A stretch of 64,000 nt of DNA from assembly GCA_028282585.1 (NCBI GenBank), contig JANQHR010000046.1, positions 1-64,000 on the forward strand. Direction: 5' to 3'. Below the pieces are notes generated by a model. It made no database searches. It saw only the letters and a list, made by a program, of their open reading frames with translations, and had not been told where the DNA came from. The stretch is from Bacteroidales bacterium. GTDB taxonomy: Bacteria; Bacteroidota; Bacteroidia; Bacteroidales; UBA12077. A program made the translations under genes and the position numbers. Shown piece after piece: positions 37,685 through 61,339 of this stretch; within the stretch, counting starts at the first letter, position 1, and every line of letters begins with the position of its first letter.

Positions 37685-37749
37685 AATAATCCCAATTTTC
37701 GGTTAAATTTATTTTTAATATAATTTTTAGTCTCCTAAGAATATTATGT

Positions 37750-44900: not shown

Positions 44901-46669
44901 CCTAATATACCAATAACGGAGTTTATTGATCTATTGTCTAATATGCATACAATATCTGATTTTTTTACGCCTTTTTTATCTAACTGATTTGCTACAATAC
45001 AAACCATCTTATATAAACCACCATATGTAATAGATTTGTCTTTAGCTACTAAAGCTATCTTATCGGGAAATTTCTTAACAGTTGTTTCAAAAAAATCAAT
45101 TAGCGATTTTTGTCCTGTATAATCATTATTTTTATTATTAAACTTTTGAAGTAATTCACGTTTCTTATTTTCTTCTAAAATTTCAATATCTGAAATCAAC
45201 CGATCTGGGCAATCATTCAATTGATCTACTATTTTTAGAAAAGATTCTATATATCGTTCGATTGTTTCAGGCTTAAATAACTTAGAGCTATACTCTATTG
45301 TAATTAATATTTGTTCCCCACAATCACAAACTATTAATCCTAAATCAAATTTTGATATACTATACTCATGAGTATATTCACCTTTCCTCAATGATGATAA
45401 ATCTATGATTGTTTCGCTTTGATTTTGAACATTAAACATAACGTCAAACAATGGATTTCTACTAGCATCTCTTTCAATTGCTAATTTATTAACCAGTTCT
45501 TCGAAATGATATTCTTGATTATCTAAATCTTTTAATGTTTTTAATTTGACCTCTTCAATAAACCTCCTAACTGATCGATTTTTATCAATTTTAGTTCTAA
45601 GGGCAAGAGAATTTACAAACATTCCCACAATATCATTAATATCAGAGTGTTTTCGACCTGCTGCCGGACAACCTACAACAATATCATCTTGACCACTAAG
45701 CTTTGATAATAATATATTAAACGCGGAGAAAAAAAACATAAACAACGTGATATCATGATCTTTCAAAGAAGCTTTCACTTTTTTAGTTTCTTCTTTTGTT
45801 AACGCAAAATTTACAATTGCTCCATTAAACTGTTGCTCTGATGCCCGCAAGAAGTCAGTTGGCAAGTTTAAAGCATCCGGATTGTCTTTGTATAAATTTA
45901 GCCAGTGCTCTTCTTGTTTTTTAATATTCGCTTTTTGGTTATTACTTTTTATTATCCACTCTGAGAAGTCTTTAAACTGTAGGGGAATTTTAGGTAAGTT
46001 ATCCCCATTGTAAAATCGATGGAAATTCTGTAACAGAACATTTTGAGATGTACCATCATTTATAATATGGTGCATATCTAACATTAAAATAGAATTACCA
46101 CCTTTAACTTTAAATAAATTAGCCCTAAAAAGCGGGGCCTTATTTAGATCAAATGGTTTTACAAATTCTTTTCTATTTTTTTCTATTGCTTTAGCATCAA
46201 TTTCAAACTCTTCAATATTGAATTCAACAGTATCATGAATTCTTTGTGCAGGTATTCCATCCACTAATTCAAACGAAGTTCTAAGGCTATCATGATGCTC
46301 AATAAGTTTTTTAAAAGTATTTTCAAGATGTTTTACGTCAACGTTTTTGTTAAGTGTAATTTCAAATGGCAAATTATATGCAACACTTTCCGGATTCTTT
46401 TTCTGTAAAAGATATAATCCTTTCTGAGCAGAAAAAATATTATAGTAATCTTTCTTTTCGGAATTTTTAATTTTTTCAAAAATTCTTTTATATTTCTTTT
46501 GCTCTTCAATAAAATAAGCTATTATTTCATTTTTAAATTTTCTAATTTTCTCAGTAAGGTGTATTGGGATATCCTGCTTTTTTAATGAGATTAACTGTAT
46601 CTTATCATCTTTAACAGATATTTTTATGCCTGATTCATATAATTCATTTAACAAATCTGAAATTTTCAT
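41996..46669 (-). CDS. NRPS: docking domain-C-A-T-C (terminal)
   Basis: TubC-type N-terminus; HHIINDG; YTSGSTGIPKG, YGPTE, YKTGD; GGDSL; terminal C with HHILFDIW. Confidence 0.93.
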   Translation of the reverse strand: MKISDLLNELYESGIKISVKDDKIQLISLKKQDIPIHLTEKIRKFKNEIIAYFIEEQKKYKRIFEKIKNSEKKDYYNIFSAQKGLYLLQKKNPESVAYNLPFEITLNKNVDVKHLENTFKKLIEHHDSLRTSFELVDGIPAQRIHDTVEFNIEEFEIDAKAIEKNRKEFVKPFDLNKAPLFRANLFKVKGGNSILMLDMHHIINDGTSQNVLLQNFHRFYNGDNLPKIPLQFKDFSEWIIKSNNQKANIKKQEEHWLNLYKDNPDALNLPTDFLRASEQQFNGAIVNFALTKEETKKVKASLKDHDITLFMFFFSAFNILLSKLSGQDDIVVGCPAAGRKHSDINDIVGMFVNSLALRTKIDKNRSVRRFIEEVKLKTLKDLDNQEYHFEELVNKLAIERDASRNPLFDVMFNVQNQSETIIDLSSLRKGEYTHEYSISKFDLGLIVCDCGEQILITIEYSSKLFKPETIERYIESFLKIVDQLNDCPDRLISDIEILEENKKRELLQKFNNKNNDYTGQKSLIDFFETTVKKFPDKIALVAKDKSITYGGLYKMVCIVANQLDKKGVKKSDIVCILDNRSINSVIGILGILKTGAAYLPIDSETPVERIKYYIKDSSSKIILTAEELKDSLDLDLNIVNLSDNDYSENITKYNELCEISSYDISQIIYTSGSTGIPKGVVITHGKVLNHLIPLINDINIDSSDKVLLFSPMSFDASVEQFWLPLLTGGELISIEKSLMLDKIEFEDYINKKAVTCLYMVPAYLQNLKLKGLKNLGKIVMGGDECKSDHVKSLYEQLDFYNEYGPTETTVTATRHLVKGYEKNVKIPIGKPVANKNIYILDEDLKMLPVGIIGEIFIGGPCVSDGYLNNVELTTEKFIKNPYSPNQIMYKTGDLAKWLPDGNIEFAGRKDEQVKIRGFRIELGEVKTCLLKIYGIKDAAVLVRIKDNGDKVLCAYVVTNEFITKDEIRNYLSKEIPYYMIPHYVEIIEKLPLTSGGKINVNALPDIIKDDVSGNDEKRDELSELVYNAWSKVLNLKTIKSTDRFFEIGGDSLKAMQLSAELQKSDIKVTMADLMKYPTISDLSKFIKTVNRSGANKGENSYVLRPIEKKEYYPLTYSQSFFIKSLMEGVNPNMKGTINLSKIDKPALKNAVKNLLNKHENLRTNFIKVNGELRQKVRSLSELNFNLEEIVIENKKDYISELKQQIKTDYNKPFNLEKDCLIRMKLFCLPNDNYVFYFVIHHILFDIWSSNLLIKELQSLYKQGIGNKNNQNLNQLKINYKDYSERLYDLIKSQYGEELKRFWIKGLFKATEKLKLKLGNSSNNNKKKGNLITYHSPIPVEIYEHIIKCSIDKNYNVYTVLLAAMNLVMSKLQNEKEVVVRCPVACRQNIDVNKIIGFIANEIFLPVNIDDTHTGATYLETVSRDFTEAMNYQMYPSLLLANDLGISYDNLKDDMAILTLNHHKYKSEYKGLYNINSRNKTKQLSEEVKNILCLCHEYKNGIVIEWGFCENIHTKEKMIIVEKMFFYFLNQLLNNPDEKINNYLNKYSNCNLELILNN

Positions 46670-46727: not shown

Positions 46728-48389
46728 TTAAAAGTCAAGCTCCGGAATCCCAAGTTCCCAGTTAACTTCGCTATGATTTTTTTTATCTATAAGTTCTAGC
46801 TTACTTATCATTTCGATAATCTCATCGCTTGCTTCAGATATGTTTTTATTTAATATTTTCTCTCTTACACCCTCATTAAATGCAATTAGAAATGTTTTTA
46901 ATTGCTGTTTAGTCATACCCTTATATTGCAATTGAACCAAGAATTCATAATCAAAGTAATACTGTGGAACTCTAATTGGATCGTTTACTTCGATTATAAG
47001 TTTTTCAATCATATCACAAGCTTTTTCTGAATTGAGAGTTGAATGGGACCATTCAAATCCTTTTCCTTGTATGTTATATTTTTCTCTTTCTCTCCATATT
47101 GGGGTTATAAACTCATAGTACCACAATTGAGCTCTGTAGAAATCGAGCGCACTGTTTTTAATAAAATTGTATGTTTCCTGAAATGTTTTTTCGGTCTCTC
47201 CTGGAAAACCTATAATAAAACTACCATAAGTTTGGATACCTGCATCAGACAATATCTCTATACCCTTAAGATATTGTTTAGCAGTTACCTGTTTATTCAT
47301 GTTTTTTAAAATAGTGTCACTTCCTGATTCAATTCCTAAAAAAACACTTTCGCAACCGCTTTCCTTCATCATAGATGCTATTTCTTTATCTATATATTGA
47401 GATCTTATAAATGAATGCCAGTTAAACTTATCTTTTCGTTTAATCATCATATTCAAGATCTCTTTGAAACGTTTAGGCGGCACATTAAATGTATCATCCA
47501 AGAAAAATATATTCTTTATACCATCAATATTTTTTAATGTGTTTAGCTCTTTCTCAATATCACAGGTTTTAATTGCCTGATATTTGCCAGCATGTTCAGG
47601 AAAGCCACAAAACGAACATTTAAACGGACAGGAAATACTTGTTCTAATATTAATAAAATTACCTACGTTATTAGAAACTAAATCCCAATTCACCAAATTA
47701 TCTTGTAGTTTATTATTTTCTTCACTTGTTTTATTAAAAATATACTCACCATTAGATTTGTAAATAACATTATCAATACTTCCAATATCTTTGTCTGTAT
47801 TTTTAATCATTGATAGAAGATCAACTAACGCCTTCTCTCCTTGCGAACTATTTACATAATAATCTGCATCTAATTTGTTAAACAAATTCTTTTGTTCTTC
47901 AATAGATGAAATTCTCATTTGAGTTGCAATAAAATGACCTCCGATTATAATTTTAGATCCTTTATTATACTTTTTCACAACGTCAAGAACTTCGAATAGA
48001 GGTGTTGATATAACATATAAAGTTGTTGAAATTGCGATAGCATTAATCTCACACGTTTGTAGTAATTCAATCAGGTTATCTTTTTCTTCTTGAAAAGAAT
48101 GGATATACTCGTAAGTAAAACCTCTTTTATTTAAATAAGTCACTAAATAAGAAATAGTTGTACTAAATGTTTCGATATAATTTATATGTTCTAAACTTTG
48201 ATTAGGTTTTACGCAAAAATCATTATATATATCAGTTGCATTATATTTTCTTGATTTATGAGTTAAAAAATTCATGTTTAAATCTCTATATGTAGAAGTA
48301 TCTTTACCAATACGTTCAATGAGATCTATAAATTCATCATATTTTATTTGATTATGTCCAACAATCAAACAATCAATTTTCTTTTTCAT
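46728..48389 (-). CDS. PhpK-family (P-methyltransferase-like) cobalamin radical SAM enzyme
   Basis: 553 aa; DCLIVGHN, YRDL, IIIGG, RTSISCPFKCSFCGFP, DDTFNVP, GIESGS, GFEWSH; radical SAM call is firm, PhpK subfamily is from recalled motifs. Confidence 0.72.
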   Translation of the reverse strand: MKKKIDCLIVGHNQIKYDEFIDLIERIGKDTSTYRDLNMNFLTHKSRKYNATDIYNDFCVKPNQSLEHINYIETFSTTISYLVTYLNKRGFTYEYIHSFQEEKDNLIELLQTCEINAIAISTTLYVISTPLFEVLDVVKKYNKGSKIIIGGHFIATQMRISSIEEQKNLFNKLDADYYVNSSQGEKALVDLLSMIKNTDKDIGSIDNVIYKSNGEYIFNKTSEENNKLQDNLVNWDLVSNNVGNFINIRTSISCPFKCSFCGFPEHAGKYQAIKTCDIEKELNTLKNIDGIKNIFFLDDTFNVPPKRFKEILNMMIKRKDKFNWHSFIRSQYIDKEIASMMKESGCESVFLGIESGSDTILKNMNKQVTAKQYLKGIEILSDAGIQTYGSFIIGFPGETEKTFQETYNFIKNSALDFYRAQLWYYEFITPIWREREKYNIQGKGFEWSHSTLNSEKACDMIEKLIIEVNDPIRVPQYYFDYEFLVQLQYKGMTKQQLKTFLIAFNEGVREKILNKNISEASDEIIEMISKLELIDKKNHSEVNWELGIPELDF

Positions 48390-48492: not shown

Positions 48493-51400
48493 TTAAATTT
48501 CTATTACTTGCGTTTCTTCTTCAAATTCCTCTAAATTAAATAACATAACCGCTATATCTTTTACCGTATGCTTTTCAAATAACTCAGCCAAAGGAATGCT
48601 AACTCCAAATTCTTTACTTATTCTAGATTGTAGAAGTATTGCTTTTAGTGAGTGACCTCCAAGGTCGAAAAAGCTTGAACTTGTGCTAATCAGGTTATGA
48701 GGAATATTCAATACTTCCGCCCATATTTTTATAATTTTTTCCTCTATTTTATTTCCAGGTAATATAAATTCTGCTTCCAACTTAATTTCAGGATCAGGTA
48801 AACGACTATAATCAATTTTCCCGCTTGTATTTAGTGGAATCTCATCAATTTCAACATAAAAAGAGGGAATCATATACTCCGGTAATTCACTGGATAAGAA
48901 ATCTTTAAAATCTCTATCACTACATTTTTCTGAAATTTTCACTTTATCTCCCGGAAATATTTCCTGGTAAAATGGTATCTTTTTGAACGAGTCAGGAGTG
49001 TTCATTGAAATATATTCAAATTTCTCAATTTTATTGTTATCTAAATATAATTCTCCTTGTATCAAATAATCCGGATTTAATCCATTTTCAGAAAGCTTTC
49101 TTGTTATCTTTGCTTTTAAATAATTTCCTTTACTAACTTTAATTCCTTGGTAAAAAATAGGGAAGTAAACCGGTAACCAAATAGACTTTTCCTCAATAGT
49201 ATCAATTACTTCTTGTTCGTCGCAATATAAAACTAACCAAACAATCAAACCATTAAACACAGAATCCTTTTTGAATTTTAAAGTAATATTCTGTTCCGCT
49301 TCCAGGTCAATTAGTTGATTAAAATTTAAATCTTCAAATACTCCAATATCAGAGATGATGTTTTTCTTTTTAAATGAAGATAAAACCAATCTTAAATCAA
49401 ATTTCCGACCTATATTATCAAATATTTTATCTACATAATAAGCAGCTACTTCATCAAAAGAAGCATCAAAATCGTTTTTTGGTAAAGTAACAGCGGCAAC
49501 CTTTGAAATACTTCTTGAAGGAATCATTGAGAAATTTTCATCCATTTTAGGATGTATCTCATTAATAATCTTGGCAGCACCCTCTGCTCCACCTATTGAT
49601 CCTACAATTTCAGATATACAACAATCAATCTTTTCTGGTAACTCAATTTGCGTCGCATCACCATGTATTACAATAATCTTATCTTCAAGTCCTAAGGTTT
49701 TTATTTTATTAAATGCTTTTTGATAGGCTTCTTCTATTATTTCAACTGCATAAATTCTTTTTGCACTTTCTTCCAAACAAATCAGTGATAATATACACTC
49801 ACTTCCCGGTCCAATTTCTAAAACCACTTTGTCTTTAACAACTTTTTGTATTGCTTTTCTATACTTTTCATTTCTTAATTCATCGTTAGCAAAGTGTTTA
49901 TATATTCTATCATCATATACATAATACTCGGCAAGAGAAGGCCATAATCCAATTTTCTCCTTTTGCTTAAAATAAGCTATTAATTGATCTTCATTATATA
50001 TATTATGTTTTCTAATGACTGCATTTTCTATACAATTATGATTAGTCAGGCATTTTTCAATTTCTTTCAGTTCTATTCTATACCCACGAAGCTTTATTTG
50101 ATCATCTAAACGACCTTTGAATTCTATCTCACCATTAGACAACCACCTTCCACAATCTCCTGATTTATACATTATTTCTCCGGGATTAAATGGATCCGGA
50201 ATAAAACTTTTCCGAGTTAATTCGGCTTTCCCGAGATAACCTCTTCCGACACCAATACCAGAAATATAAATATCTCCTATAACACCTATAGCTTGTGGTC
50301 TTAATTTTTTATCTAAAATATAAACTTGAGTATTATTAATAGGCTTACCAATTGTTATTATTCCTAAGGAATTATAGTTTTTAGTATCCCATGCTGTTGC
50401 ACATATAGAAGTTTCAGTGGGACCATATGCATTAATATATGTTATTTCTTGATTATACTTTTTAATTAAAGTTTCACTTGTTTCTGAGCCTGCAGTTATT
50501 AATACTTTTAACTTCTTTATTACATTATCTGAAACATTAGATGCAAAAACCGGCGGTAAAGTAACTATTGATATTATTTTTTTAAAAATATCATTCTCAA
50601 ATGAAATCAAACTTACCTTATTTTCTTTATTAGGAATAAATAGTTTGGCACCATTAAAAAGTGTCATAAAAATTTCGGAAACAGAAGCATCAAATGATGG
50701 GCTGGAATAAAACATAATATGATCATTAGGAGTTACTTTAAAAGTATCTATCCATAAATTGTTTTCACTCACAATTCCTTTATGTTCTAATAAAGTTCCT
50801 TTCGGTTTTCCTGATGTTCCTGAAGTATAAATAACATATGCAAGATCGTTTGGTTGATTGCTTAATTCATTTTCGTTAAGGTCAATATTATTACTTTTTG
50901 ATAATTCAGTTTCATTCAACAAAATTACCTTACCATCAAACTCAAAATCAATGTCATCTGCATCAGTAGCTACAATATACTTAATTTTACTATCATTAAC
51001 TATGAACTGTTTTCTTTCCTTTGGGTAATTCATGTCTATTGGTAAATAAGCACCACCAGACTTTAAAATTCCCAATATGCCTATAATAAGTTCAAATGAT
51101 TTTTCAATTGCAATTCCAACTATCACATCTGATGTTACGCCGTTTTTCCGTAGCAAATTAGCAAGGCAGTTAGATCTCTTATTAAGCTCATTGTAAGTCA
51201 AACTTAGATCATCGTTAACAAGAGCAATTTTGTAAGGATTCTTTTCTGCCTGAATTTCAAACATCCGATGAATTGTTTTATTATCAGGAGTAATAGTTTT
51301 AGAATTATTAAATTCATATAATACCAGTTCCTTTTCTTCTTCAGACAGAATTGTAAACTCGTCTAATTTTTTGTAAGGGTATTGAAGGCAATCACCAATT

Positions 51401-52098
51401 AAAGTTTCAAGTTTAGTAGCTATATTACATATATCAGACCGAGTATACTTTACAGAGTTATATTCAATATTAACTGAAATATTATCATCATTATTTTCTA
51501 CAATTAATAATAGATTATAAGCAATACCAAAAATGTATTCCTTTTTATGTAATTTTTTATTCAATACAAAAATATCGAATAGCTCATTTTTATTTTTATT
51601 ACATTCAATCCCGGATTTATGAATCAGAGTTTTTATTGGAAAATTCTGGTTTTCAGTTGAATCTTTTATAGACTGCCCGACTTTTAGTAAAAGATCCTTA
51701 AAGCTATCATGTATATCAATATTTACGTATAATAACAATAAGGTATTGATGAAATCAACGTCTTGTTTTTGTTTAAAAATCGGAGCTCCAAGCAAAATAT
51801 TATTATTATTACTCATTTTTTGTAACAATAAAAATATATTAGACAATAATACGGTATAAACTTTCACCTCCGAATTTCCACAAAGCTTAAGAATTCTATT
51901 TGTAGTTTCTTTTTTCAATTTAATTATGAAATTTTCATATACTGTATCATCTGTATAATTTCTATTTTTCTCATATGGAAATGAGGAATATGAAATATTG
52001 GATGATAATAACTTTTCCCAATACAGTTTTTCATTTCTTCTAGATTCATCAGTAGAATTCATAATCATTATGTATTTATTATATTTTAAAAATTCCAA
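48493..52098 (-). CDS. NRPS: half-C (interface-like)-A(Tyr-like, methyltransferase-interrupted)-T
   Basis: No HHxxxDG; by-eye code DASTIAAICK; VLEIGPG methyltransferase inserted between A8 and A9; GGHSL; true start may be a slightly later Met. Confidence 0.9.
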   Translation of the reverse strand: MEFLKYNKYIMIMNSTDESRRNEKLYWEKLLSSNISYSSFPYEKNRNYTDDTVYENFIIKLKKETTNRILKLCGNSEVKVYTVLLSNIFLLLQKMSNNNNILLGAPIFKQKQDVDFINTLLLLYVNIDIHDSFKDLLLKVGQSIKDSTENQNFPIKTLIHKSGIECNKNKNELFDIFVLNKKLHKKEYIFGIAYNLLLIVENNDDNISVNIEYNSVKYTRSDICNIATKLETLIGDCLQYPYKKLDEFTILSEEEKELVLYEFNNSKTITPDNKTIHRMFEIQAEKNPYKIALVNDDLSLTYNELNKRSNCLANLLRKNGVTSDVIVGIAIEKSFELIIGILGILKSGGAYLPIDMNYPKERKQFIVNDSKIKYIVATDADDIDFEFDGKVILLNETELSKSNNIDLNENELSNQPNDLAYVIYTSGTSGKPKGTLLEHKGIVSENNLWIDTFKVTPNDHIMFYSSPSFDASVSEIFMTLFNGAKLFIPNKENKVSLISFENDIFKKIISIVTLPPVFASNVSDNVIKKLKVLITAGSETSETLIKKYNQEITYINAYGPTETSICATAWDTKNYNSLGIITIGKPINNTQVYILDKKLRPQAIGVIGDIYISGIGVGRGYLGKAELTRKSFIPDPFNPGEIMYKSGDCGRWLSNGEIEFKGRLDDQIKLRGYRIELKEIEKCLTNHNCIENAVIRKHNIYNEDQLIAYFKQKEKIGLWPSLAEYYVYDDRIYKHFANDELRNEKYRKAIQKVVKDKVVLEIGPGSECILSLICLEESAKRIYAVEIIEEAYQKAFNKIKTLGLEDKIIVIHGDATQIELPEKIDCCISEIVGSIGGAEGAAKIINEIHPKMDENFSMIPSRSISKVAAVTLPKNDFDASFDEVAAYYVDKIFDNIGRKFDLRLVLSSFKKKNIISDIGVFEDLNFNQLIDLEAEQNITLKFKKDSVFNGLIVWLVLYCDEQEVIDTIEEKSIWLPVYFPIFYQGIKVSKGNYLKAKITRKLSENGLNPDYLIQGELYLDNNKIEKFEYISMNTPDSFKKIPFYQEIFPGDKVKISEKCSDRDFKDFLSSELPEYMIPSFYVEIDEIPLNTSGKIDYSRLPDPEIKLEAEFILPGNKIEEKIIKIWAEVLNIPHNLISTSSSFFDLGGHSLKAILLQSRISKEFGVSIPLAELFEKHTVKDIAVMLFNLEEFEEETQVIEI

Positions 52099-53813
52099 TT
52101 ATTTATATCCAAATCAATATTAGTAACCTCTGCTTCGATAGTCTCCTTAACCAAATATCTTTCATCAATTGCAATATTATTTTCATCAAAATCCACTAGG
52201 CCTGGAACAGCATTTTCATGAAGGTTTTTCCATCGAATATCTGCCAGATATGTTTCCTTTAAAGAATATGAATTTGGTACTCCAAGTGATTTACAAAATT
52301 TAATAAACCTATTTACCCTACTATAAGCTTCTTCTCTACTAGGATAATAGTTCAGTTTCCATTTTTGAATAATTAAGGAATTATTATATTCTTCCGGGTA
52401 TAATGTTTCCCTATACTTTCCCCATTTATTGGAGTCAACTTGACCTGAAAAATAGTATATAAAAGGATTACAATCTGCTTCATAGATATAATCCTGTAAC
52501 TCCTCAATTAAATTCAAAGTAGCAAGGAAATCCTCTTCTGTTTCTTCAGGGTGTCCAACCACCCACATAGTTGTAGTCTTAATTCCTGCCTTTGCCAGAT
52601 TAATAACTGCATCTTTGATTTCCAAAGGAGATATCTTTTTATTCATTAAATCAAGAATCTTCTCTGATCCACTTTCAATACCTAACCTAGCTCTATAGAA
52701 TCCCCCTTCTCTCCAGGACAATGTATTTTCTATCCTACCCGACTTTTTATCTATTCTAAGATATCCATCAAAATAAACTGCAAGTTTATTCTCAGAAAGT
52801 TCTTTTGTTAAATCATCAATCAAAGGATTTAACAATGAATCACACATATAAAAGAGTTGCTTCTTGTTTTTATTGTATAAAGTTTTTAATTCCGTAATTA
52901 CGTTTTTAATATTTCTTTTCCTGTAATCTCCCCAGAAAACTGTTTCGGAACAAAAACTACATTGGAAAGGACAACTTCTTGACGCAAAGTTCGCTTGATA
53001 TAAATAATAATTTAAATCAAAATCTGAAAAATCTGGTTTATACTCATTTATTGTATCTAGATTGTTAATTAAATCATCTTTTGTATAAACCTTTTGGTTA
53101 GATTTTAATTTGCCCCGAATTAAATTCAGCAACAGTTGTTCTCCTTCTCCAATTATTATTTTATCAATATTTTTAGAAACCTTGATAAATCTATTATAGT
53201 TCGGAGTATCTACTTTTAAATCTGATGAGAATATTGGCCCTCCAAATATTGTTTCAATATGAGAAAACCTTTCTTTTATTATATTACAAACAAACATAGA
53301 GGCCGCAAAGGATCCTTTATTAACTGATAATCCAACTTTTGAAGGGTTATATTTTTTAACTAAAGCTAAAATATACTCTAATAGCTTATTAAAAAACTCT
53401 CCAATGATTTCATTAAATAGTTCAACATCATTCGCTGATATATCATAATAGAAAGTATTATAAAATATTGTATAAATAATTTTATTCAGTTCTTCTTGTG
53501 TTTTACTAAAAGCAAACGCCATCATATGTTCTGAAAGAACATCCATTCCAATATTATAAAGATGTAACCTTTTATCCTCCGGTATTACTTTTTCAATATT
53601 GAAGAAGTATTTTTTTTTGCAGTTATAAAAGTCTATATTGGTATTAGCATCAATATTTTTTACCTTAAATAAACTATTCCTCTCAATATAACTCTTAAGG
53701 CAAGCAATGCCTAAAGGAGGTATCTGCTGATCCCAATATGGCAACATTATTAAAAGGATAATTTTATTTTTTTTTAGATTTTCTCTCTCTCTCATTCTAA
53801 ATTGCAAAATCAT
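52086..53813 (-). CDS. Cobalamin-dependent (class B) radical SAM methyltransferase-like enzyme
   Basis: PPLGIACLKSY, FGGP, GEGE, SRSCPFQCSFC, GIESGS, VGHPEET; true start may be near 53795. Confidence 0.88.
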   Translation of the reverse strand: MILQFRMRERENLKKNKIILLIMLPYWDQQIPPLGIACLKSYIERNSLFKVKNIDANTNIDFYNCKKKYFFNIEKVIPEDKRLHLYNIGMDVLSEHMMAFAFSKTQEELNKIIYTIFYNTFYYDISANDVELFNEIIGEFFNKLLEYILALVKKYNPSKVGLSVNKGSFAASMFVCNIIKERFSHIETIFGGPIFSSDLKVDTPNYNRFIKVSKNIDKIIIGEGEQLLLNLIRGKLKSNQKVYTKDDLINNLDTINEYKPDFSDFDLNYYLYQANFASRSCPFQCSFCSETVFWGDYRKRNIKNVITELKTLYNKNKKQLFYMCDSLLNPLIDDLTKELSENKLAVYFDGYLRIDKKSGRIENTLSWREGGFYRARLGIESGSEKILDLMNKKISPLEIKDAVINLAKAGIKTTTMWVVGHPEETEEDFLATLNLIEELQDYIYEADCNPFIYYFSGQVDSNKWGKYRETLYPEEYNNSLIIQKWKLNYYPSREEAYSRVNRFIKFCKSLGVPNSYSLKETYLADIRWKNLHENAVPGLVDFDENNIAIDERYLVKETIEAEVTNIDLDINNWNF

Positions 53814-56800
53814 TTAACTCATTTATAAAAGAATCAGAATCAGCTTGAGTCAGACCTATCTCCAACATTGAATTTTGATTATCCAATAATTCATTAGGAT
53901 TAACCACTACATATTCAAGGATATTTCTAAAATGATTTAAAACATTAGAAATCAATTCATCATCAAATAAATTTTTATTATACACTGTTATGATCTCAAA
54001 TTCTTCTCCTGGAGATATAATAATATTGAAGTTATAATTAGTTTGTTCCTCGTTATGTACTTTTTGGACTTTAAAACCAACATTTATATGTGTGCTACTT
54101 TTATTAAGCTCTTTAAAACCATCATTTATTGCAAAATTTTGAAATAGAAAAATATGGTCAATTAATTCAATTCCTTTATCTGTAAAAGATTGTATATCAG
54201 CCAGAGATGAGTATTCATATTTTTTTATTTCTAAGGTTTCATTTTTTATTCTATCTAAGAGTGTATTAAAAGTATCTGTTTCATTACGCTTTATTCTTAT
54301 TGGAACAGTATTTATAAAAAGCCCCACCATTTCTTCGACATTTTCGATTTCACTGGGTCGACCGGATGTAACTGATCCAAAAATAACATCATCAGTATCA
54401 TTATACAGTTGTAATATTAATCCCCAAACCGTTTGTAATAAAACATTTGGTGTTACTGCATTTCGGGATGCAAATTGAATTAATCTTTGCTTAACAGAAT
54501 CTTCAAGTTTTAAAGTTAACTTTCCTTTTTTAAATTCTGGTTCTTCTTTAATTTTCTTAGGCAAGCTATTAGCACCGTTAAAGTTCTGTAAATATTTTTT
54601 CCAAAAATCAAGTGACTTATCATTATCCTGAGATTGTAACCAGGTAATATAATTTCTAAATTTATTAGTTGGAGGCATTTTGTACGAAGCTCCATATTTT
54701 ACATTTCTATAAAATGTTAATAAATCCCTAAAAAGAATCGTTGTACACCATCCATCCATTAAAATATGATGAAAGCTCCAAATAAAAGTAAACTTTTGAT
54801 CTTCAGTTTTAAATAATGTCAATTTAGTTAAGTTATCCGAACTTAAATCAAAGCCTTTATATCTTTCTTCTGTTTTATATGTTTCAATACTTTTTTGTTG
54901 TTCAACATTATCTAAGTTTCTAATATCTTTAAAGTTTATTTTTACTTCACGTTTTGTTAAAACAATTTGAAGCGGCCTGTCTATATCTTCATAAACAAAT
55001 TTTGTTCTAAGAGTTTCATATCTATTTAGTACTTCGTTAAAGCTTTTTTCTAATATTTTACAATCTATATCTCCTTCAATGATAATCTCAGATTGCTCAA
55101 AATATTCTCCCGAATGTCTATCAACTAGTGAATGAAATAACATCCCATATTGCATTGGACTTAATTCATACATATCCTGAATGTTATTTCGATTAACACT
55201 AACTAATCTATTAAAGTCATTAAGAGTTATGTTTTTTAATCCAAAATCACTAGGTGTTAATTCGTTGTTTTCCTTTAACCTGCAGTGTTCAGTTATTTCA
55301 ATGAGGCTTTGCTTAAATTGATTTGTTAGTTTTTCTATTGTATTTTCATTATTCTCATGTTTGTTATATCTAAAAGTAAAACTTAATTGTCCTCCACTTG
55401 CCATTCCATTTACTTCAATTGCGTAAACAGATTCCATCAAATGGCTGATTGAATCACCAGCAGAATACTTTGAAAAACTATATAACTCTTCTTCTTCAAA
55501 GGAACTTATTCCACTACCTGTAAATTCTCCCAGATAGTTAAAGCATATTTCTGGTTTCAAATTGAATAGTTCGTTATTTTCATCGTTGCTATATTTTAAG
55601 ACCCCATATCCTATTCCTTTAAATGGTATATGTCTTAAATTTTCTTTAGTTTCTTTTATAAGTTCTGAAATATCTTCATAATTTTCTAAAACAATGGGAT
55701 ATTGAGTAGTAAACCAACCTATGGTTCGATTAATGTCAACATCATCAAATATTGCTTCTCTACCGTGTCCTTCTAATTCTACTGCAATTTTGCTAAGGTT
55801 TCCCCATTTACACACCGACTTTACAAGTGCAGATAATAGAATATCGTTTATTTCTGTATTATAAGCCTTATTTGATTTTTTTAAAATCTGCTCGGTCTGT
55901 GACTTATTAAAACTTACTGTTTTAATAATTTGATTTCCAATATTTTTACAATCACTTTTTACATTAAAATCTTTTGGAATGTTAGGAATTTCTCTTTCAA
56001 CAACTTTTTGCCAGTACAATTTCTCCTTTAATAGCTTAGAGCTTTTAGAATAATCATTTAATCTCTCTGACCAATATTTATAAGAATCTGTTTTTAAAGG
56101 AAAAATAGGCTTTTCATCTTTAAGAATTGAACTATAAGCTATGGAAAAATCCTCAAGTAATATTCGCCAGCTAATTCCGTCAATTATTAAATGATGTATT
56201 ACAAGTAAAAGGTGATCGCCTTCATTTGTGATAAAATGTCCTAATTTAACCAGTGGACCTTTCTCCAGGTCTATACTTCTCTGAATTATATTAGATTGTT
56301 TTTCTATAAAACTTGAAACTTCATTTTCTCCTTTCAAATTAAAAGTTTCAATCGAATAATTTTTATTCTCTAATCCATTATTATATTGGAAATATTCATT
56401 ATTTCTTTTATAAAAGACTGTTCTTAAGATATCATGATGTTCTACTAACTCTTTAAAAACGTTATTAATTATTGGTAGGTCAAATCCCTCTTTTTTATAC
56501 AGCATTACAGACTGATTATAATGATGTAAATCCATAAAGCCTGTATTTAACAACCATGACTGTATAGGGATTAATGGGATCTTTCCAGTTACCGGACTTT
56601 GACTTATCTCCCTTTCACATTTTAGGATTTTCTTACTTATTTGATCAATTTTTTGATATTTAAATATATCTGCTACAGATAATTTTAAACCATACATATT
56701 TAATCTTGATGCAATTTGAATTGTTTTAATGGAATCGCCACCTAACTCAAAGAAATTCGCATCAGTACTAATTTTATCTTTTGGAATTCCTAAAACCTCC

Positions 56801-59202
56801 GACCATACCTCAACCATTTTCTCCTCATTATCATTTGCAGGCAACTTACAGTCTAATGCATCTAACTCCGGCTCAGGCAATAATTTTCTATTAACTTTTC
56901 CGTTAGCATTTAAAGGAATTGTATCTATTTGAACAAAAAAGGAAGGAATCATATAGTCTGGAAGTGACTTTGATAGCTTATTCCTTATATTAAGATTTTC
57001 ACTATCGGTATCAGAAGTATAATAAACAACAATATATTTTTGACCTGTTTTATCATCAAAATTTATAACAACCGATTCTTTGATCTCTTGAATTTTATTT
57101 AATATCTTTTCAATCTCGCCTAATTCTACTCTAAATCCTCTAATTTTAACCTGGTGATCTATTCTACCCAAGAATTCAATATTTCCGTCGGGCAACCAGC
57201 ATCCTTGATCTCCTGTTTTATATAACAAATCTTTCATTGAACCGGCAAGCTTATTTACAATAAACTTACTATGAGTTAACTCTACTTTGTTTAAATATCC
57301 TCTAGCCAATCCTTCTCCTGCAATACATATCTCTCCAGGAACTCCTATTGGGCACAGCTCATTATATTTATTTGTAATAAAAATCCTCGTGTTACTTCGC
57401 GGTTTTCCAATTAATGAAATCTCATTATCTGATTTTCCCGAGAAATGATATGTAGTAGCTTCAACAGAAGCTTCGGCTGGTCCATAAGCATTTATTATCT
57501 TACCATTCCAATTTAGATATTTTCTGCTATTTTTAACAATTTCGATGGGTATATATTCGCTTCCTAAGGATAGGTGACTAAGATCTGGCAAAATTTCTCT
57601 ATTTGAATCTAACTCTATCATATTAAAAATTTCTTTCATCACAACTGGTACCTCATCAATATTATTAATATGATTATTTCTAAGATAATTAATATAGCTA
57701 CTGATATCTAGCCTCAATTCTTTTTTAATAAGATGTAAAGTTCCCCCTGAAATTAAAGGAGGGAATATTTGCTGAATAGCACCATCAGAAGCATAAGAGT
57801 TAGATAATAATACTTGAAAATCCTTTTTATGACCAAATTCCTTTATTGCCCATAAATTAAACTCTAAAAATGATTTATGTTCTATCAAAATTCCTTTAGG
57901 TACACCTGTAGTTCCAGAAGTGTACATGATATATGCAATGGAGGTTAACCATTCCTCATTTCCTTTACAATTAATGCCTTCCGATCGTAATTCCGTTTTT
58001 ATAATCTTATTTACATTAATTATCCTTTCCGATGGTAATTCTAATTCCTTGATTGTTAACCTATCAGTAATTAAGTATTTTGAATTACTATCTTTTAATA
58101 TAAAATTGATTCTCTCAACCGGATTTGAAATATCTATAGGTAAATATGCTGAACCTGCACGTAACACACCTAATATTGCTATAACCATTTCAATAGATGT
58201 ACTGCAAAGAATCGAAACAATATCATTGGACTTGATACCTTTTTTACATAAGTCAGAGACAACATTTGAAGATTTCTCAAATAATTCTTTATAAGTAATT
58301 TTTTTGTCTTCTAATATTAAAGCTGTACTATTAGGGGTTTTCGCTGCCTGCTCTTCAAAAAGTTGAGGAATTAGTTTAACCTTCGGGAACTCGGTTCTTG
58401 TATCATTAAACTCCTGTATTATAAGCTTTTGTTCTTCAAAACTTAAACTAGTTACTTCTTTTAATGATCTATTCAAATCATAACAAAAAATCTGCTCAAA
58501 AATATGTACTAAGTTTCTTGAAATTCTTTCTATTAAATCCAACGAATAACTAAAAGAATCATAATTGATATTACAATCTATATTTAAACCATCATTATTA
58601 AAATTAAATATTAAACCACAGTTGAAATCTGCAATAGATTCTGAATGATGGAAATCATTTAACATAACAACAACATCAAATAAAGAGCTTTGATTTCTAT
58701 TATTGAATTTACCTATTTGTTTTATCAGTATGTCAACAGGGTAATTCTGGTTACTTGTAGCTTCAATAATTGAATTTCTAATATTTGATAAAAAAGATCG
58801 TACGGAAAGACTTTTGCTAATCTCGATATATATTGGTAATACCGTATTTATCACATTCTTGGTATAACTTTCATTTTTTATAGGAATTCCAATAACCGTA
58901 TCTTTATTACCGGTATATGCCTGAAGTAGAAGAAAAATGCCAGATGTTAACATTACATGAAGCCTTTCTTTGTTACCTCTACTAAACTTTCTTATTGGTT
59001 CAGATATTTTTGTACTGAATTTAATATTATATGTATCATATTTGCAAACATTCCCACTATTTACTCTATTTTCTCTTTTATCAAAAGGAATACAACTAAT
59101 AGATTCAATATCAGAAAGTTTATTTAACCAATAAGATCTTTCCCTGAACTGCTGAAAGGCCCAGACTCTTTTATCCAGATCAGAAACACTCATGCTAATC
59201 AA
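53797..59202 (-). CDS. NRPS: half-C (interface-like)-A-T-E-C
   Basis: YTSGTTGVPKG; GGDSI T; E domain HHLIIDGISW/EGHGRE/RTIGWFT; DCL-type C HHILMDGWC. Confidence 0.94.
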   Translation of the reverse strand: MISMSVSDLDKRVWAFQQFRERSYWLNKLSDIESISCIPFDKRENRVNSGNVCKYDTYNIKFSTKISEPIRKFSRGNKERLHVMLTSGIFLLLQAYTGNKDTVIGIPIKNESYTKNVINTVLPIYIEISKSLSVRSFLSNIRNSIIEATSNQNYPVDILIKQIGKFNNRNQSSLFDVVVMLNDFHHSESIADFNCGLIFNFNNDGLNIDCNINYDSFSYSLDLIERISRNLVHIFEQIFCYDLNRSLKEVTSLSFEEQKLIIQEFNDTRTEFPKVKLIPQLFEEQAAKTPNSTALILEDKKITYKELFEKSSNVVSDLCKKGIKSNDIVSILCSTSIEMVIAILGVLRAGSAYLPIDISNPVERINFILKDSNSKYLITDRLTIKELELPSERIINVNKIIKTELRSEGINCKGNEEWLTSIAYIMYTSGTTGVPKGILIEHKSFLEFNLWAIKEFGHKKDFQVLLSNSYASDGAIQQIFPPLISGGTLHLIKKELRLDISSYINYLRNNHINNIDEVPVVMKEIFNMIELDSNREILPDLSHLSLGSEYIPIEIVKNSRKYLNWNGKIINAYGPAEASVEATTYHFSGKSDNEISLIGKPRSNTRIFITNKYNELCPIGVPGEICIAGEGLARGYLNKVELTHSKFIVNKLAGSMKDLLYKTGDQGCWLPDGNIEFLGRIDHQVKIRGFRVELGEIEKILNKIQEIKESVVINFDDKTGQKYIVVYYTSDTDSENLNIRNKLSKSLPDYMIPSFFVQIDTIPLNANGKVNRKLLPEPELDALDCKLPANDNEEKMVEVWSEVLGIPKDKISTDANFFELGGDSIKTIQIASRLNMYGLKLSVADIFKYQKIDQISKKILKCEREISQSPVTGKIPLIPIQSWLLNTGFMDLHHYNQSVMLYKKEGFDLPIINNVFKELVEHHDILRTVFYKRNNEYFQYNNGLENKNYSIETFNLKGENEVSSFIEKQSNIIQRSIDLEKGPLVKLGHFITNEGDHLLLVIHHLIIDGISWRILLEDFSIAYSSILKDEKPIFPLKTDSYKYWSERLNDYSKSSKLLKEKLYWQKVVEREIPNIPKDFNVKSDCKNIGNQIIKTVSFNKSQTEQILKKSNKAYNTEINDILLSALVKSVCKWGNLSKIAVELEGHGREAIFDDVDINRTIGWFTTQYPIVLENYEDISELIKETKENLRHIPFKGIGYGVLKYSNDENNELFNLKPEICFNYLGEFTGSGISSFEEEELYSFSKYSAGDSISHLMESVYAIEVNGMASGGQLSFTFRYNKHENNENTIEKLTNQFKQSLIEITEHCRLKENNELTPSDFGLKNITLNDFNRLVSVNRNNIQDMYELSPMQYGMLFHSLVDRHSGEYFEQSEIIIEGDIDCKILEKSFNEVLNRYETLRTKFVYEDIDRPLQIVLTKREVKINFKDIRNLDNVEQQKSIETYKTEERYKGFDLSSDNLTKLTLFKTEDQKFTFIWSFHHILMDGWCTTILFRDLLTFYRNVKYGASYKMPPTNKFRNYITWLQSQDNDKSLDFWKKYLQNFNGANSLPKKIKEEPEFKKGKLTLKLEDSVKQRLIQFASRNAVTPNVLLQTVWGLILQLYNDTDDVIFGSVTSGRPSEIENVEEMVGLFINTVPIRIKRNETDTFNTLLDRIKNETLEIKKYEYSSLADIQSFTDKGIELIDHIFLFQNFAINDGFKELNKSSTHINVGFKVQKVHNEEQTNYNFNIIISPGEEFEIITVYNKNLFDDELISNVLNHFRNILEYVVVNPNELLDNQNSMLEIGLTQADSDSFINELNDFAI

Positions 59203-59252: not shown

Positions 59253-60374
59253 TTAGTTTGAAACGAAACTCTCTAATAAATCAATTGCTTCATTGAATTT
59301 AATAGATTCTATTCCGTAATTTATTCTAAAGTGATTATTTTCACCAAAAACATTACCGGGGAGTAATGAAACATTTTTACTTTTTAAGAGTTTTTGGCAA
59401 AATTCATTTGAATTGATGTTACCTTTAATTTTTGGAAAAGCAACTAGTCCTCCCTGAGGTTCCACATACTCAAAAATATGACGATATTTATGCATAAAGC
59501 TATTTAATGTAGCTACATTACTTAATATTTGTTCTTTAATATGCAGTAATAACTTAGCTCTATTTCTCAAAATAATTAAAGCCAGATAATCACTAATAGG
59601 TGAGGTTACATGTGTTAAATAATGCTTATATTCTCTGCATTCTTCTATAATTTCCTGATCTGAAATTAACCAACCTATTCTTAAACCATTTACACCAAAA
59701 CATTTTGTAATTGATCCGGTTGCTGCAACTTTTTTATGAATTTTATAACATATATCAAATCCTGACAACATCAAATCAGTACCAGACTGCAATGGTAAAA
59801 ACTTATAATGTTCGTCAAATAATAAATAAATATTATGCTTCTTAGCCATATAAGAAATAGCTTTTACTAATTCAATATCAAGTTTAGAGCCAGTTGGATT
59901 GTGTGGGTTATTGATTATTAACAACTTTGTTTTAGGAGTAATTATCGATTCAAGGGTTTCTAAACAGGGTATATAATTTGATTTCTGTTTTAAATCTAAA
60001 TATTTAATTTCACAGCCTATGGCTTTTGGCAGTTCCGATAAAGTCTGAAACTCCGGATACTCTACTATTACTTCATCACCAGGATTTAATATTGAATTAA
60101 AAAAAGTAAATAATGCTTCAGTAACGCCAGTAGTAACTAATACGTTTTCCACATTGACATTTTCATAACAAGAAATTATTTCTTTTCTAAGTTCAATAGA
60201 TCCTCTAGTATCAGGGTTCATTAAATTAATTTTTTTGAGATTATTAATATCTTCATTACAAAGTTCTAATATTTCATTTAATGTAAAATCAACATACCCA
60301 CTTTCTGCCAAATTATATCTAATAAATTGATTATCAGCCAACCAGTCTTCCATAATTAATTTGTCAATTTTCAT
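59253..60374 (-). CDS. Fold-type I PLP enzyme (class I/II aminotransferase; VioD/capreomycidine-synthase-like N-terminus)
   Basis: MEDWL, YNLAESG, NNPHNPTG, DEHY, GSITKCFGVNGLRIGW. Confidence 0.85.
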   Translation of the reverse strand: MKIDKLIMEDWLADNQFIRYNLAESGYVDFTLNEILELCNEDINNLKKINLMNPDTRGSIELRKEIISCYENVNVENVLVTTGVTEALFTFFNSILNPGDEVIVEYPEFQTLSELPKAIGCEIKYLDLKQKSNYIPCLETLESIITPKTKLLIINNPHNPTGSKLDIELVKAISYMAKKHNIYLLFDEHYKFLPLQSGTDLMLSGFDICYKIHKKVAATGSITKCFGVNGLRIGWLISDQEIIEECREYKHYLTHVTSPISDYLALIILRNRAKLLLHIKEQILSNVATLNSFMHKYRHIFEYVEPQGGLVAFPKIKGNINSNEFCQKLLKSKNVSLLPGNVFGENNHFRINYGIESIKFNEAIDLLESFVSN

Positions 60375-61339
60375 ACAAGTGCTCCTTTCTTTTTACCGAT
60401 CAAATCTTTACACTCACAGAATAATCCTTTTAAACCTGATACATCTTGTGTCTTATTAAAAAATTCGATTTCCCGCCGAATATTTTCATCACATTTTGGA
60501 CAAGAATTAGGCATTCTATCTTTAGAAAGGTTTTCATCGCTTAAACCAACAAAAATACAACCTTCCTGATGTGTTTTTAATATTACTTCAACAACACTCC
60601 AAAGGTTTAGCATTCTATATTCGGATTGTAAATATAATTTCTCAAGGTTTGAATCTTCTGATATGAAAACCGGCTCAAATGCTACTCGCGCATTTATCTC
60701 GTACTTTTTAGCAACTGAAAATACATATTTTGCACTTTGAACCGCATCATCGACAGCTTCACTTTCTGTTAGAGTTGGTGGTTTAATTAAAAGATAAACC
60801 AATAATGTACAACCTGATTCTTTTAGTGTCATAACAGTTTTCTCAAAGTCCTCTTTTGATAAGTTTTTATTTATTACTGTGTTTCTTACATAATCGTTAG
60901 CACTTTCAAGTCCAATTCCAAAATCTAATATTTTATTTTTTAGAACTTTTTTACACTCAGCTAATTTTTCAATGGTAACATACTCAGCTCTCGACTCAAT
61001 AGAAACTCTCTTTATATGAGGAATATCTGCAATCATTTTAAGCAAAGTTACTCTTGTTTGGGGATTAACTTCACTATCATTCAAAAAAGATCCAAGTGTT
61101 AGTAAATCAATTTCACCAACATCGTTAAGATCATGTGTTTTTAATGTTCTTTCAAATTGCATTATAATATCATCTTGGGATATGTTGTTACCTGCATTCT
61201 TTATAAATCCACAAACAGTACAACCACCATGATTTTGTCGTGCATATTCACATCCTGTAGTTTTCAACACTACCATAAGTCTATTCGTGTTTATACCATT
61301 TATGTTAACAGGACTTATTCTACTAAAAGCTGGTTCCAT
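60371..61339 (-). CDS. Radical SAM protein, archaeosine RaSEA (TIGR01210)-like
   Basis: GC-X9-CTVCG, GSFL..EV, IESRAEY, GLESAND.VR..INK, YLLIKPP.LTE.EA, LWSVVEV, CPKCD...CEC. Confidence 0.8.
   Translation of the reverse strand: MEPAFSRISPVNINGINTNRLMVVLKTTGCEYARQNHGGCTVCGFIKNAGNNISQDDIIMQFERTLKTHDLNDVGEIDLLTLGSFLNDSEVNPQTRVTLLKMIADIPHIKRVSIESRAEYVTIEKLAECKKVLKNKILDFGIGLESANDYVRNTVINKNLSKEDFEKTVMTLKESGCTLLVYLLIKPPTLTESEAVDDAVQSAKYVFSVAKKYEINARVAFEPVFISEDSNLEKLYLQSEYRMLNLWSVVEVILKTHQEGCIFVGLSDENLSKDRMPNSCPKCDENIRREIEFFNKTQDVSGLKGLFCECKDLIGKKKGALV

Follow-up and report, generated by a model that had tools for sequence, protein, structure and literature searches.

A monophyletic family of N-terminal half-condensation domains at split modules of nonribosomal peptide synthetases, and an acidic aromatic tail shared by upstream subunits and B12-binding radical SAM enzymes

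The first 64,000 nucleotides of contig JANQHR010000046.1 (assembly GCA_028282585.1, Bacteroidales bacterium, lineage UBA12077), hereafter the window, carry part of a cluster encoding nonribosomal peptide synthetases (NRPSs) in which two synthetases, of 1801 and 1201 aa, begin with the C-terminal lobe of a condensation (C) domain, here termed half-C. This half-C belongs to a widespread and monophyletic family, found at the N-terminus of proteins that continue with adenylation (A) and thiolation (T) domains and that almost always follow a protein ending in an intact C domain. The proteins encoded upstream of it, as well as free B12-binding radical S-adenosylmethionine (rSAM) enzymes encoded at the same junctions, frequently terminate with a short acidic tail ending in an aromatic-x-hydrophobic motif. 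On balance, and with only a modest lean over the other readings taken together, we favour the explanation in which the half-C serves modules split between C and A as their docking and platform domain, to which tailed B12 rSAMs are tethered.

Results

Domain organization of the two half-C synthetases

Both NRPS open reading frames (ORFs) were confirmed on the minus strand, as were all the genes of the region. The window covers the initial 64 kb of its 121-kb contig (C124 in the coordinates beyond the window), on whose minus strand the cluster extends from about 40 kb to beyond 120 kb. The features at the two junctions are the following, PLP standing for pyridoxal phosphate and E for epimerization.

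48493..52098, minus strand: 1201-aa NRPS; half-C, A with inserted methyltransferase, T, betaHD-type tail ...ETQVIEI
51289..52098, minus strand: half-C of the 1201-aa NRPS; Pfam Condensation, C-lobe only
52086..53813, minus strand: B12-binding radical SAM enzyme, 575 aa; Pfam Radical_SAM 1.1e-17, B12-binding 3.5e-06; end ...DLDINNWNF
52089..52124, minus strand: tail of the 575-aa rSAM, last 12 residues, ending W-N-F; docking-type
53797..59202, minus strand: 1801-aa NRPS; half-C, A, T, E-like domain (HHLIIDG), C (HHILMDG), tail ...NELNDFAI
53800..53835, minus strand: tail of the 1801-aa NRPS, last 12 residues, ending D-F-A-I
58393..59202, minus strand: half-C of the 1801-aa NRPS; C-terminal lobe only, no HHxxxD; inside the half-C clade (support 99)
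59253..60374, minus strand: PLP enzyme, 373 aa, GntC/VioD-like; Pfam Aminotran_1_2; no docking tail
60371..61339, minus strand: RaSEA-like radical SAM enzyme, 322 aa; TIGR01210, 229.2 bits (cutoff 212.15); end ...KKKGALV
61369..62919, minus strand: stand-alone protein of 516 aa, TubC_N (betaHD) and intact C (HHIISDG); upstream partner of the 1801-aa NRPS; tail ...DSFGNF

When the first 270 aa of each synthetase were compared with the 456 positions of the Pfam Condensation profile, the 1801-aa NRPS matched positions 193–455 only (E 4.1e-20) and the 1201-aa NRPS positions 175–454 only (E 1.8e-27); the two half-Cs are 32% identical to each other (E 5e-35). The stretches ERSYWLNKL and EKLYWEKLL correspond to residues 21–29 and 23–31 of the two proteins, respectively. 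Neither half-C contains an xHxxxD[GASE] motif. When the full-length C-like domains in the cluster were inspected, 13 of 15 had it; HHxxxD is kept in all 15, the two outside [GASE] reading HHLIIDT and HHILFDI. The initial annotation had described these N-termini as approximately 260 aa of C domain lacking HHxxxDG, and this was confirmed, both matching only the C-terminal lobe of the Pfam family.

The same annotation had located the intact C at the end of the previous protein and tailoring genes between the two, and such an arrangement was indeed found at both junctions. At the first one the C domain is that of the 516-aa protein (Pfam TubC_N 2e-12; Condensation 3.1e-109, profile positions 2–446), and the slot holds two genes, those of the 322-aa rSAM and of the 373-aa PLP enzyme. 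At the second one it is the C-terminal C of the 1801-aa NRPS (residues 1342–1779; profile positions 2–447, HHILMDG), followed by the 575-aa rSAM, which overlaps its two neighbours by 17 and 13 bases.

A local scan with hidden Markov models (HMMs) retrieved four N-terminal half-Cs across the cluster, two of them beyond the window, and all four come after a protein ending in an intact C. The third opens a 2398-aa NRPS, which is preceded by a MiaB/RimO-like rSAM and a C-ending polyketide synthase (PKS)-NRPS. The fourth heads a 1766-aa NRPS, whose A domain holds a nested rSAM unit, and follows a C-ending NRPS after a gap of 85 bases with no gene in the slot. The other subunit boundaries of the cluster are five T|C boundaries with betaHD (TubC_N) docking domains and one C|C boundary.

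The half-C as a protein family

A profile built on the four half-Cs of the cluster was searched against 1.84 billion representative proteins, and the best 150 matches were examined. Most were giant NRPSs; 64 of the 150 open with a half-C, the N-terminal stretch being the best-scoring one in these, and one of the 64 (P0068) is this genome's own protein. A tree was then computed from 40 half-Cs together with 75 C-lobes, the latter excised from the intact C domains present in these proteins and in this cluster. As many as 39 of the 40 half-Cs, including all four of this cluster, formed one clade (branch length 0.47; support 99 both as SH-like value in FastTree and as SH-aLRT in IQ-TREE quick mode), standing apart among the elongation-type C-lobes. 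The single half-C outside the clade (P0006) resembles an ordinary C-lobe at a truncated start.

Column statistics pointed in the same direction: arginine at model column 107 is found in 98% of 726 C-lobes vs 8% of 65 half-Cs, which have also lost the RDxxR and KFD positions and have other positions conserved in them only. As far as residue conservation can tell, these figures agree with the half-C being a derived, non-catalytic domain. Its closest solved relatives by sequence are ordinary elongation C domains, namely those of TycC (1.9e-27), bacitracin synthase and LgrA. The half-C of the 1201-aa NRPS is predicted to fold alone (AF2 model, pLDDT 87.1, pTM 0.85), and the model superposes on the C-lobe of the LgrA and Txo1 C-A structures with TMq 0.75–0.77. 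The entry PDB 8z0q ("Special condensation domain"), considered as a possible interface (I) domain, was rejected, being HtmB2-CT.

Among 400 other genomes of the same phylum, no close relative of the four half-Cs was retrieved; 19 of them gave matches at E ≤ 1e-20 (best 2e-38), many of which lie deep inside long open frames. A natural fusion in cis of an intact C with a half-C of the family was looked for and none was found. One representative (P0048) shows half-C-like stretches after full C domains at residues 1384–1636, 2704–2955 and 4025–4275. These score 81–114 bits with the C-domain HMM and 88–108 bits with the half-C family HMM, a model that gives at least 227 bits to some 90% of the half-Cs located at N-termini. 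Since their scores are well below those of the family, they are probably of a different kind, perhaps additional C-lobes in cis. The half-C would represent an apparently undescribed, widespread and monophyletic family of docking domains, distributed across many phyla.

Gene context of the half-C in other genomes

An alignment of five closer family members was used as query against one genome per species, and yielded 78 loci with 96 half-C ORFs. These loci span Aminicenantes, Clostridia (the cultured Wukongibacter included), Halanaerobiales, Deferrimicrobium, Omnitrophota, Bacteroidales, cyanobacteria, Blastocatellia and others. For 20 of the 96 ORFs, mostly at contig ends, the upstream context was not resolvable. 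Among the remaining 76, the half-C ORF comes after a C-ending NRPS in 74 cases, directly in 38, with one gene between in 33 and with two in 3; in the other 2 cases the preceding NRPS does not end in C.

Seventeen intervening ORFs, as well as one lying just downstream of an NRPS (L112), were scanned against Pfam. B12-binding and/or radical SAM domains were found in four slot ORFs of about 570 aa and in one of 614 aa, and the L112 ORF (563 aa) matched Radical_SAM only. Seven further slot ORFs encode class-III aminotransferases, mostly cyanobacterial, one a cupin/JmjC hydroxylase and one a U32 peptidase-like protein; two showed no family, and one encodes a probably unrelated histidine kinase. A trans enzyme is often encoded in the slot between C and half-C, which is as often empty.

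A recurrent arrangement, consisting of a stand-alone C protein of approximately 470 aa, a class-III aminotransferase and a half-C NRPS, was seen in loci L084–L086, L090, L094–L095, L098–L099, L104–L108 and L110. These loci belong to cyanobacteria and Blastocatellia, their aminotransferase has no tail, and L107 also has the cupin/JmjC hydroxylase.

In a separate tree, computed for the half-Cs of these loci, those beside an rSAM are intermingled with those at direct junctions (63 labelled rows, 13 changes), and there is no special enzyme-recruiting subfamily. Partial pocket codes of the A domains were compared in order to see whether rSAM-linked modules share a substrate; the motif was not located in 58 of 87 grouped half-C ORFs, among them 10 of the 24 beside rSAMs of the g52086/g81237 family, and the remaining codes are diverse.

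C-terminal tails of the upstream subunits

The four proteins preceding half-Cs in the cluster end with ...EEDFTF, ...EEEFNF, ...DSFGNF and ...NELNDFAI. In the NRPS ORFs of the 78 loci having an intact 3' end, a tail was scored when [FWY]x[FWLIYM] stood at the very end. It was present in 50 of the 74 C-ending ORFs upstream of a half-C, in none of the 33 ORFs whose last domain is C-like and whose successor opens with a full C, in none of the 7 C-ending ORFs followed by another kind of start (0/40 for the two sets), and in 1 of the 50 ORFs not ending in C. Comparably, among the best 150 representatives, 43 of the 87 C-ending proteins carry the tail vs 5 of the 63 others, and many representatives both open with a half-C and close with a C plus tail.

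All five T-ending subunits of the cluster carry instead tails of the E-x-[IV]-x-I type, which is known as a ligand for betaHD domains. The next protein starts with a betaHD in each case, and four of these N-termini match Pfam TubC_N. Within the cluster, the class of tail goes with the type of receptor. A C-terminal tail upstream and an N-terminal candidate receptor downstream, which are the two elements of a docking pair, co-occur at the half-C junctions.

B12-binding radical SAM enzymes and their tails

The 575-aa rSAM of the second junction has the organization of class B enzymes, with a B12-binding domain (PF02310) followed by a CxxxCxxC radical SAM core (PF04055); C281, C285 and C288 are invariant in 20 family members. 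No curated NCBIfam model was matched at its cutoff, the best being BchE with 96 bits vs 481 needed. The family has a conserved ADxRWKxLHKNAVP block just before the tail. In the half-C loci, 24 of 25 free B12 rSAMs akin to the cluster's 575-aa and 552-aa enzymes terminate with an acidic aromatic tail, vs 1 of the 168 other ORFs. The MiaB-like rSAM of the cluster ends with ...DSSFNF. Since its tail is the same as that of the upstream synthetase, the 575-aa rSAM is probably plugged onto the assembly line.

A reverse test, free of half-C selection, was performed on metagenome contigs scanned with the rSAM family alone, and gave a small sample of 14 close members. The next ORF downstream could be seen for 10 of them and is a half-C NRPS in 6 (two of the 6 look like one sequence), and the tail is present in 10 of the 13 rSAMs with an intact 3' end, in agreement with the genome loci. 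One of the three untailed enzymes (L116) is followed by an NRPS starting with a full C.

A further B12 rSAM of the cluster (C124:81237-82895, minus strand) ends with ELELSI, the tail class of the T-ending subunits, and 11 of its 12 closest relatives elsewhere have an FxF tail. This suggests that its tail was swapped, re-addressing the enzyme to a betaHD junction.

Complex prediction was run with the half-C (alignment of 38 rows) and the last 60 aa of the 575-aa rSAM (19 rows), along with three controls. The pair scored 0.57 and the best control 0.01, on a scale where 58 of 80 solved complexes pass the mark, as do 2 of 110 mismatched pairs, and where the passing scores of 0.60 or less come from only 7 of the 80 solved complexes plus both of the passing mismatched pairs. 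The runs share at least 52% of contacts, with a partner pLDDT of at least 44, and the rSAM tail scored 0.00 in the control in which an unrelated protein replaced the half-C. This score is a weak pointer and not evidence of binding.

Tailoring genes of the first junction

TIGR01210, the model matched by the 322-aa rSAM, is that of RaSEA, an archaeosine enzyme. The adjacent PLP enzyme scored 326.6 bits with the GntC model (NF041364, cutoff 415) and 229.2 bits with the VioD model (TIGR03947, cutoff 390.9); GntC and VioD cyclise free hydroxy-arginines. Neither tail class is present on the two proteins. The 322-aa rSAM is rare, only 1 of 400 other genomes from the phylum having it, and its paralogue in the same genome (C25:430-1539) adjoins an NRPS starting with a betaHD-like N-terminus and a full C. 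Because of the missing tails and of the position of this paralogue, the two enzymes probably supply a free building block and are merely encoded in the slot. The product would most likely be a free non-proteinogenic residue of arginine type, made for the A domain of the 1801-aa NRPS. A RaSEA-like rSAM coupled to a GntC/VioD-like PLP enzyme could represent an oxygen-independent route to a cyclic or amidino arginine-type residue.

Other genes of the cluster

Three additional features were located in the window downstream of the half-C synthetases.

40143..41969, minus strand: B12 rSAM, 608 aa, at the cluster end; tail ...NEFELF
41996..46669, minus strand: 1557-aa NRPS; TubC_N dock, C, A, T, terminal C-like domain (HHILFDI)
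46728..48389, minus strand: PhpK-family-like B12 rSAM, 553 aa; TIGR04479, 587.4 bits (cutoff 600); tail ...IPELDF

The 553-aa enzyme comes after a T-ending subunit and not at a half-C junction, and the 608-aa enzyme has no half-C adjacent. At the end of the cluster (34610–40122, minus strand) a beta-lactamase-fold/ABC transporter fusion of 1024 aa and a MacB/FtsX-type permease of 790 aa are encoded, which probably serve export or self-protection. Beyond the window, the 2398-aa half-C NRPS (C124:88027-95223, minus strand) contains an inserted glycosyltransferase domain of GT4 type, located after its first T and before the C that follows.

At the C|C junction (C124:63041-70988, of which 63041–64000 lie in the window) a 1590-aa NRPS ends in C (HHIIGDG) and is overlapped by 14 bases by a 1062-aa protein opening with a full C-like domain (HHLIIDT); neither a half-C nor an FxF tail is present. 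The N-terminal C of the 1062-aa protein was considered as a dead I-like domain and rejected, HHLIIDT keeping both His residues and the Asp.

Comparison with known systems

Published I domains are described as full-length. The X domain of glycopeptide NRPSs recruits the P450 Oxy enzymes, and class B cobalamin rSAM methylases, for example CysS, act on carrier- or pantetheine-linked substrates. As proposed for the half-C, the X domain is a dead domain of the C family that brings tailoring enzymes in trans to a carrier-bound substrate, but it has a full C-like fold (PDB 4tx3), stands at the end of the line and binds the body of the enzyme. It is also distant in sequence from the half-C (4tx2, E 9.7e-05 vs 1.9e-27 for TycC). 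The 575-aa rSAM, in turn, resembles class B methylases such as CysS in having a B12-binding domain and a CxxxCxxC core in a thiotemplate pathway, and differs from them in its docking-type tail.

The arrangement closest to that of the half-C is the one in which MxgA ends with C-Ox and MxgB follows with I-A-PCP, PCP being the peptidyl carrier protein; the same source gives the I domain as indispensable in glidomide biosynthesis and dispensable in myxoglucamide biosynthesis (PMC13638107). The I domain is a non-catalytic C-family domain at the N-terminus of an A-T protein, located after an intact C, and the tailoring enzyme, encoded or fused in between, acts on the carrier-bound residue. The half-C occupies the same position, between the true C and A at the N-terminus of an A-T protein. 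On the contrary, the partners of I domains are Fe(II)/alpha-ketoglutarate beta-hydroxylases, whereas here they are oxygen-independent radical SAM enzymes, and no TauD-type match was found among the cluster proteins scanned. Moreover, the half-C is a C-lobe only, of approximately 260 aa, half of its junctions are enzyme-free, and its partners share a tail.

An isolated C-lobe is also known from the C* domain in module 1 of ACV synthetase, whose deletion abolishes the use of the first substrate, and from the ADA domain of fungal alpha-aminoadipate reductases (Lys2-type), which lose adenylation without it (PMC7884236). C*/ADA and the half-C are alike in being a C-lobe without N-lobe or HHxxxDG located directly before A; C*/ADA belong to first modules, lacking both an upstream C and any known partner tail, and are reported to be devoid of motifs C1–C5. 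The half-Cs differ in that they sit in elongation modules behind an intact C (4/4 in the cluster and 74/76 elsewhere follow a C-ending protein) and form a widespread clade of their own. They also partly keep stretches similar to C5 to C7 (FINT.L.LR, NQNYP, LFD).

With regard to docking, a 2021 review lists only COM, PAX and betaHD for NRPSs in its accessible text (PMC9113145). These have in common with the half-C system a short C-terminal tail upstream and an N-terminal receptor downstream. As covered by that text, they are small domains at T|C or E|C boundaries, whereas the candidate receptor described here is a 260-aa C-lobe at C|A, within a module, and its tail is shared by free tailoring enzymes. 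Literature searches, subscription papers and supplements aside, retrieved no description of a half-C/tail docking pair or of docked rSAMs in NRPSs.

Discussion

According to the favoured explanation, the half-C family would mark NRPS modules split between C and A. The half-C would maintain the C-lobe/A-domain platform of the downstream A-T protein and would double as an N-terminal docking receptor. Its ligand would be the short acidic tail with an aromatic-x-hydrophobic end (D-F-x-F type) on the upstream C-ending protein. Free cobalamin rSAMs, here the 575-aa enzyme, would have acquired the same tail, thus becoming tethered next to the A-T pair. The domain organization, the monophyly of the family, the order of the genes and the frequencies of the tails are direct results of the analysis. 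We infer, from the distribution of tails and half-Cs, that the tail binds the half-C and that the tethered rSAM acts on the T-bound residue before or around condensation, the reaction being probably a B12-dependent C-methylation or a related radical reaction.

Several points weigh against this explanation. The 78 genome loci were chosen via the half-C, and the context counts are thus not unbiased; likewise, the 40 half-Cs on the tree with the C-lobes were chosen by likeness to the cluster's own profile, which favours their clustering. The strict terminal motif is absent in 24 of the 74 C-ending proteins upstream of a half-C, of which several have it displaced from the terminus by a few residues and others lack it altogether, and the tail of the 516-aa C protein (F-G-N-F) is itself outside the strict pattern. 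Where an rSAM is present, both the rSAM and the upstream subunit carry tails, and therefore one receptor would face two ligands. The class-III aminotransferases found in the same slot in cyanobacteria have no tail. Finally, the complex-prediction score of 0.57 falls in a band where the call is wrong more often than not, except for guesses that were already likely.

Alternatively, the half-C could be a structural helper only, retained in order to let the detached A domain fold or adenylate, with docking achieved by other means; the tails would then have another role, and the rSAMs would work on free substrates or on the finished peptide, being adjacent by operon order. The loss of function upon C* deletion and in ADA-less enzymes, as reported in PMC7884236, is in line with such a role, as are the 38 of 76 junctions without a tailoring gene and the superposition of the model on the C-lobe of C-A didomain structures. 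We consider it unlikely that this is the whole account: it leaves unexplained why the tail occurs only where a half-C follows (50/74 vs 0/40), why 24 of 25 free rSAMs are tailed and why the untailed L116 enzyme stands before a full C. The platform and docking roles are in fact compatible, and the favoured explanation includes the former.

The initial annotation had read the half-C as an anaerobic counterpart of the I domain, chiefly positioning the rSAM and PLP enzymes on the T-bound residue. In support of this, the half-C has the position of an I domain, between the true C and A-T, as in PMC13638107, the slot is filled at 36 of 76 junctions, with one or two genes each (for B12 rSAMs, class-III aminotransferases and, in one locus, a JmjC/cupin hydroxylase), and the rSAMs carry tails. 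The layout itself holds, but its specificity for tailoring enzymes does not, because 38 of the 76 junctions and one of the four in this cluster are gene-free. In addition, rSAM-associated and direct half-Cs are interspersed on the tree of the locus half-Cs, the half-C is a lobe and not a whole C-like domain, and the I domain is dispensable in one of the systems described in the same paper. Recruitment of rSAMs can be retained in part: the 575-aa enzyme does look recruited, given the tail in 24 of 25 members of its family and the half-C NRPS downstream in 6 of 10 rSAM-chosen loci, while the 322-aa enzyme is untailed and has a paralogue beside an NRPS that starts with a full C. Action of the PLP enzyme on a T-bound residue found no support, this protein being untailed and similar to GntC and VioD, and the aminotransferases of other loci lack tails as well. 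As a general account of the half-C, this interpretation appears improbable.

That the receptor of the tail lies elsewhere, on the downstream A or T, or in a relay with the upstream tail binding the rSAM and the rSAM tail binding the half-C, would accommodate a complex prediction that yielded no contacts, as well as the presence of two tails at the same junction, one on the upstream subunit and one on the rSAM, but it is highly improbable, since the half-C is the sole element separating downstream proteins with tailed partners from those without, the tail is present at direct junctions having no rSAM, and it scored 0.00 in the single control in which an unrelated protein stood in for the half-C.

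Returning to the half-C as docking and platform domain, a tentative extension, which we regard as possible and somewhat short of an even chance, is that the half-C and the acidic F-x-F tail constitute a general, portable addressing code. Any enzyme gaining the tail would be brought to the carrier-bound residue of one given module, and a swap of tail would re-address it to another kind of junction, as the ELELSI-tailed rSAM suggests for betaHD.

The half-C/tail system can be seen as an apparently undescribed variant of known docking and recruitment devices. Known NRPS docking domains join one module to the next, whereas the half-C would join two proteins inside a module, at C|A, by a receptor of 260 aa that would derive from the condensation domain itself. 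A practical consequence concerns annotation, as N-termini of this kind, usually read as truncated or inactive C domains, are to be corrected. If the explanation is true, it would also provide a rule for the order of subunits in clusters of uncultured organisms, and the tail would be a small transferable tag to direct tailoring enzymes to chosen modules, thus an engineering handle. The shared tail would explain how anaerobes perform radical chemistry on a carrier-bound amino acid without oxygenases, a job comparable to that done by I and X domains for hydroxylases and P450s. The addressing code, if true, would be the way in which oxygen-independent tailoring is wired into assembly lines across anaerobic phyla.

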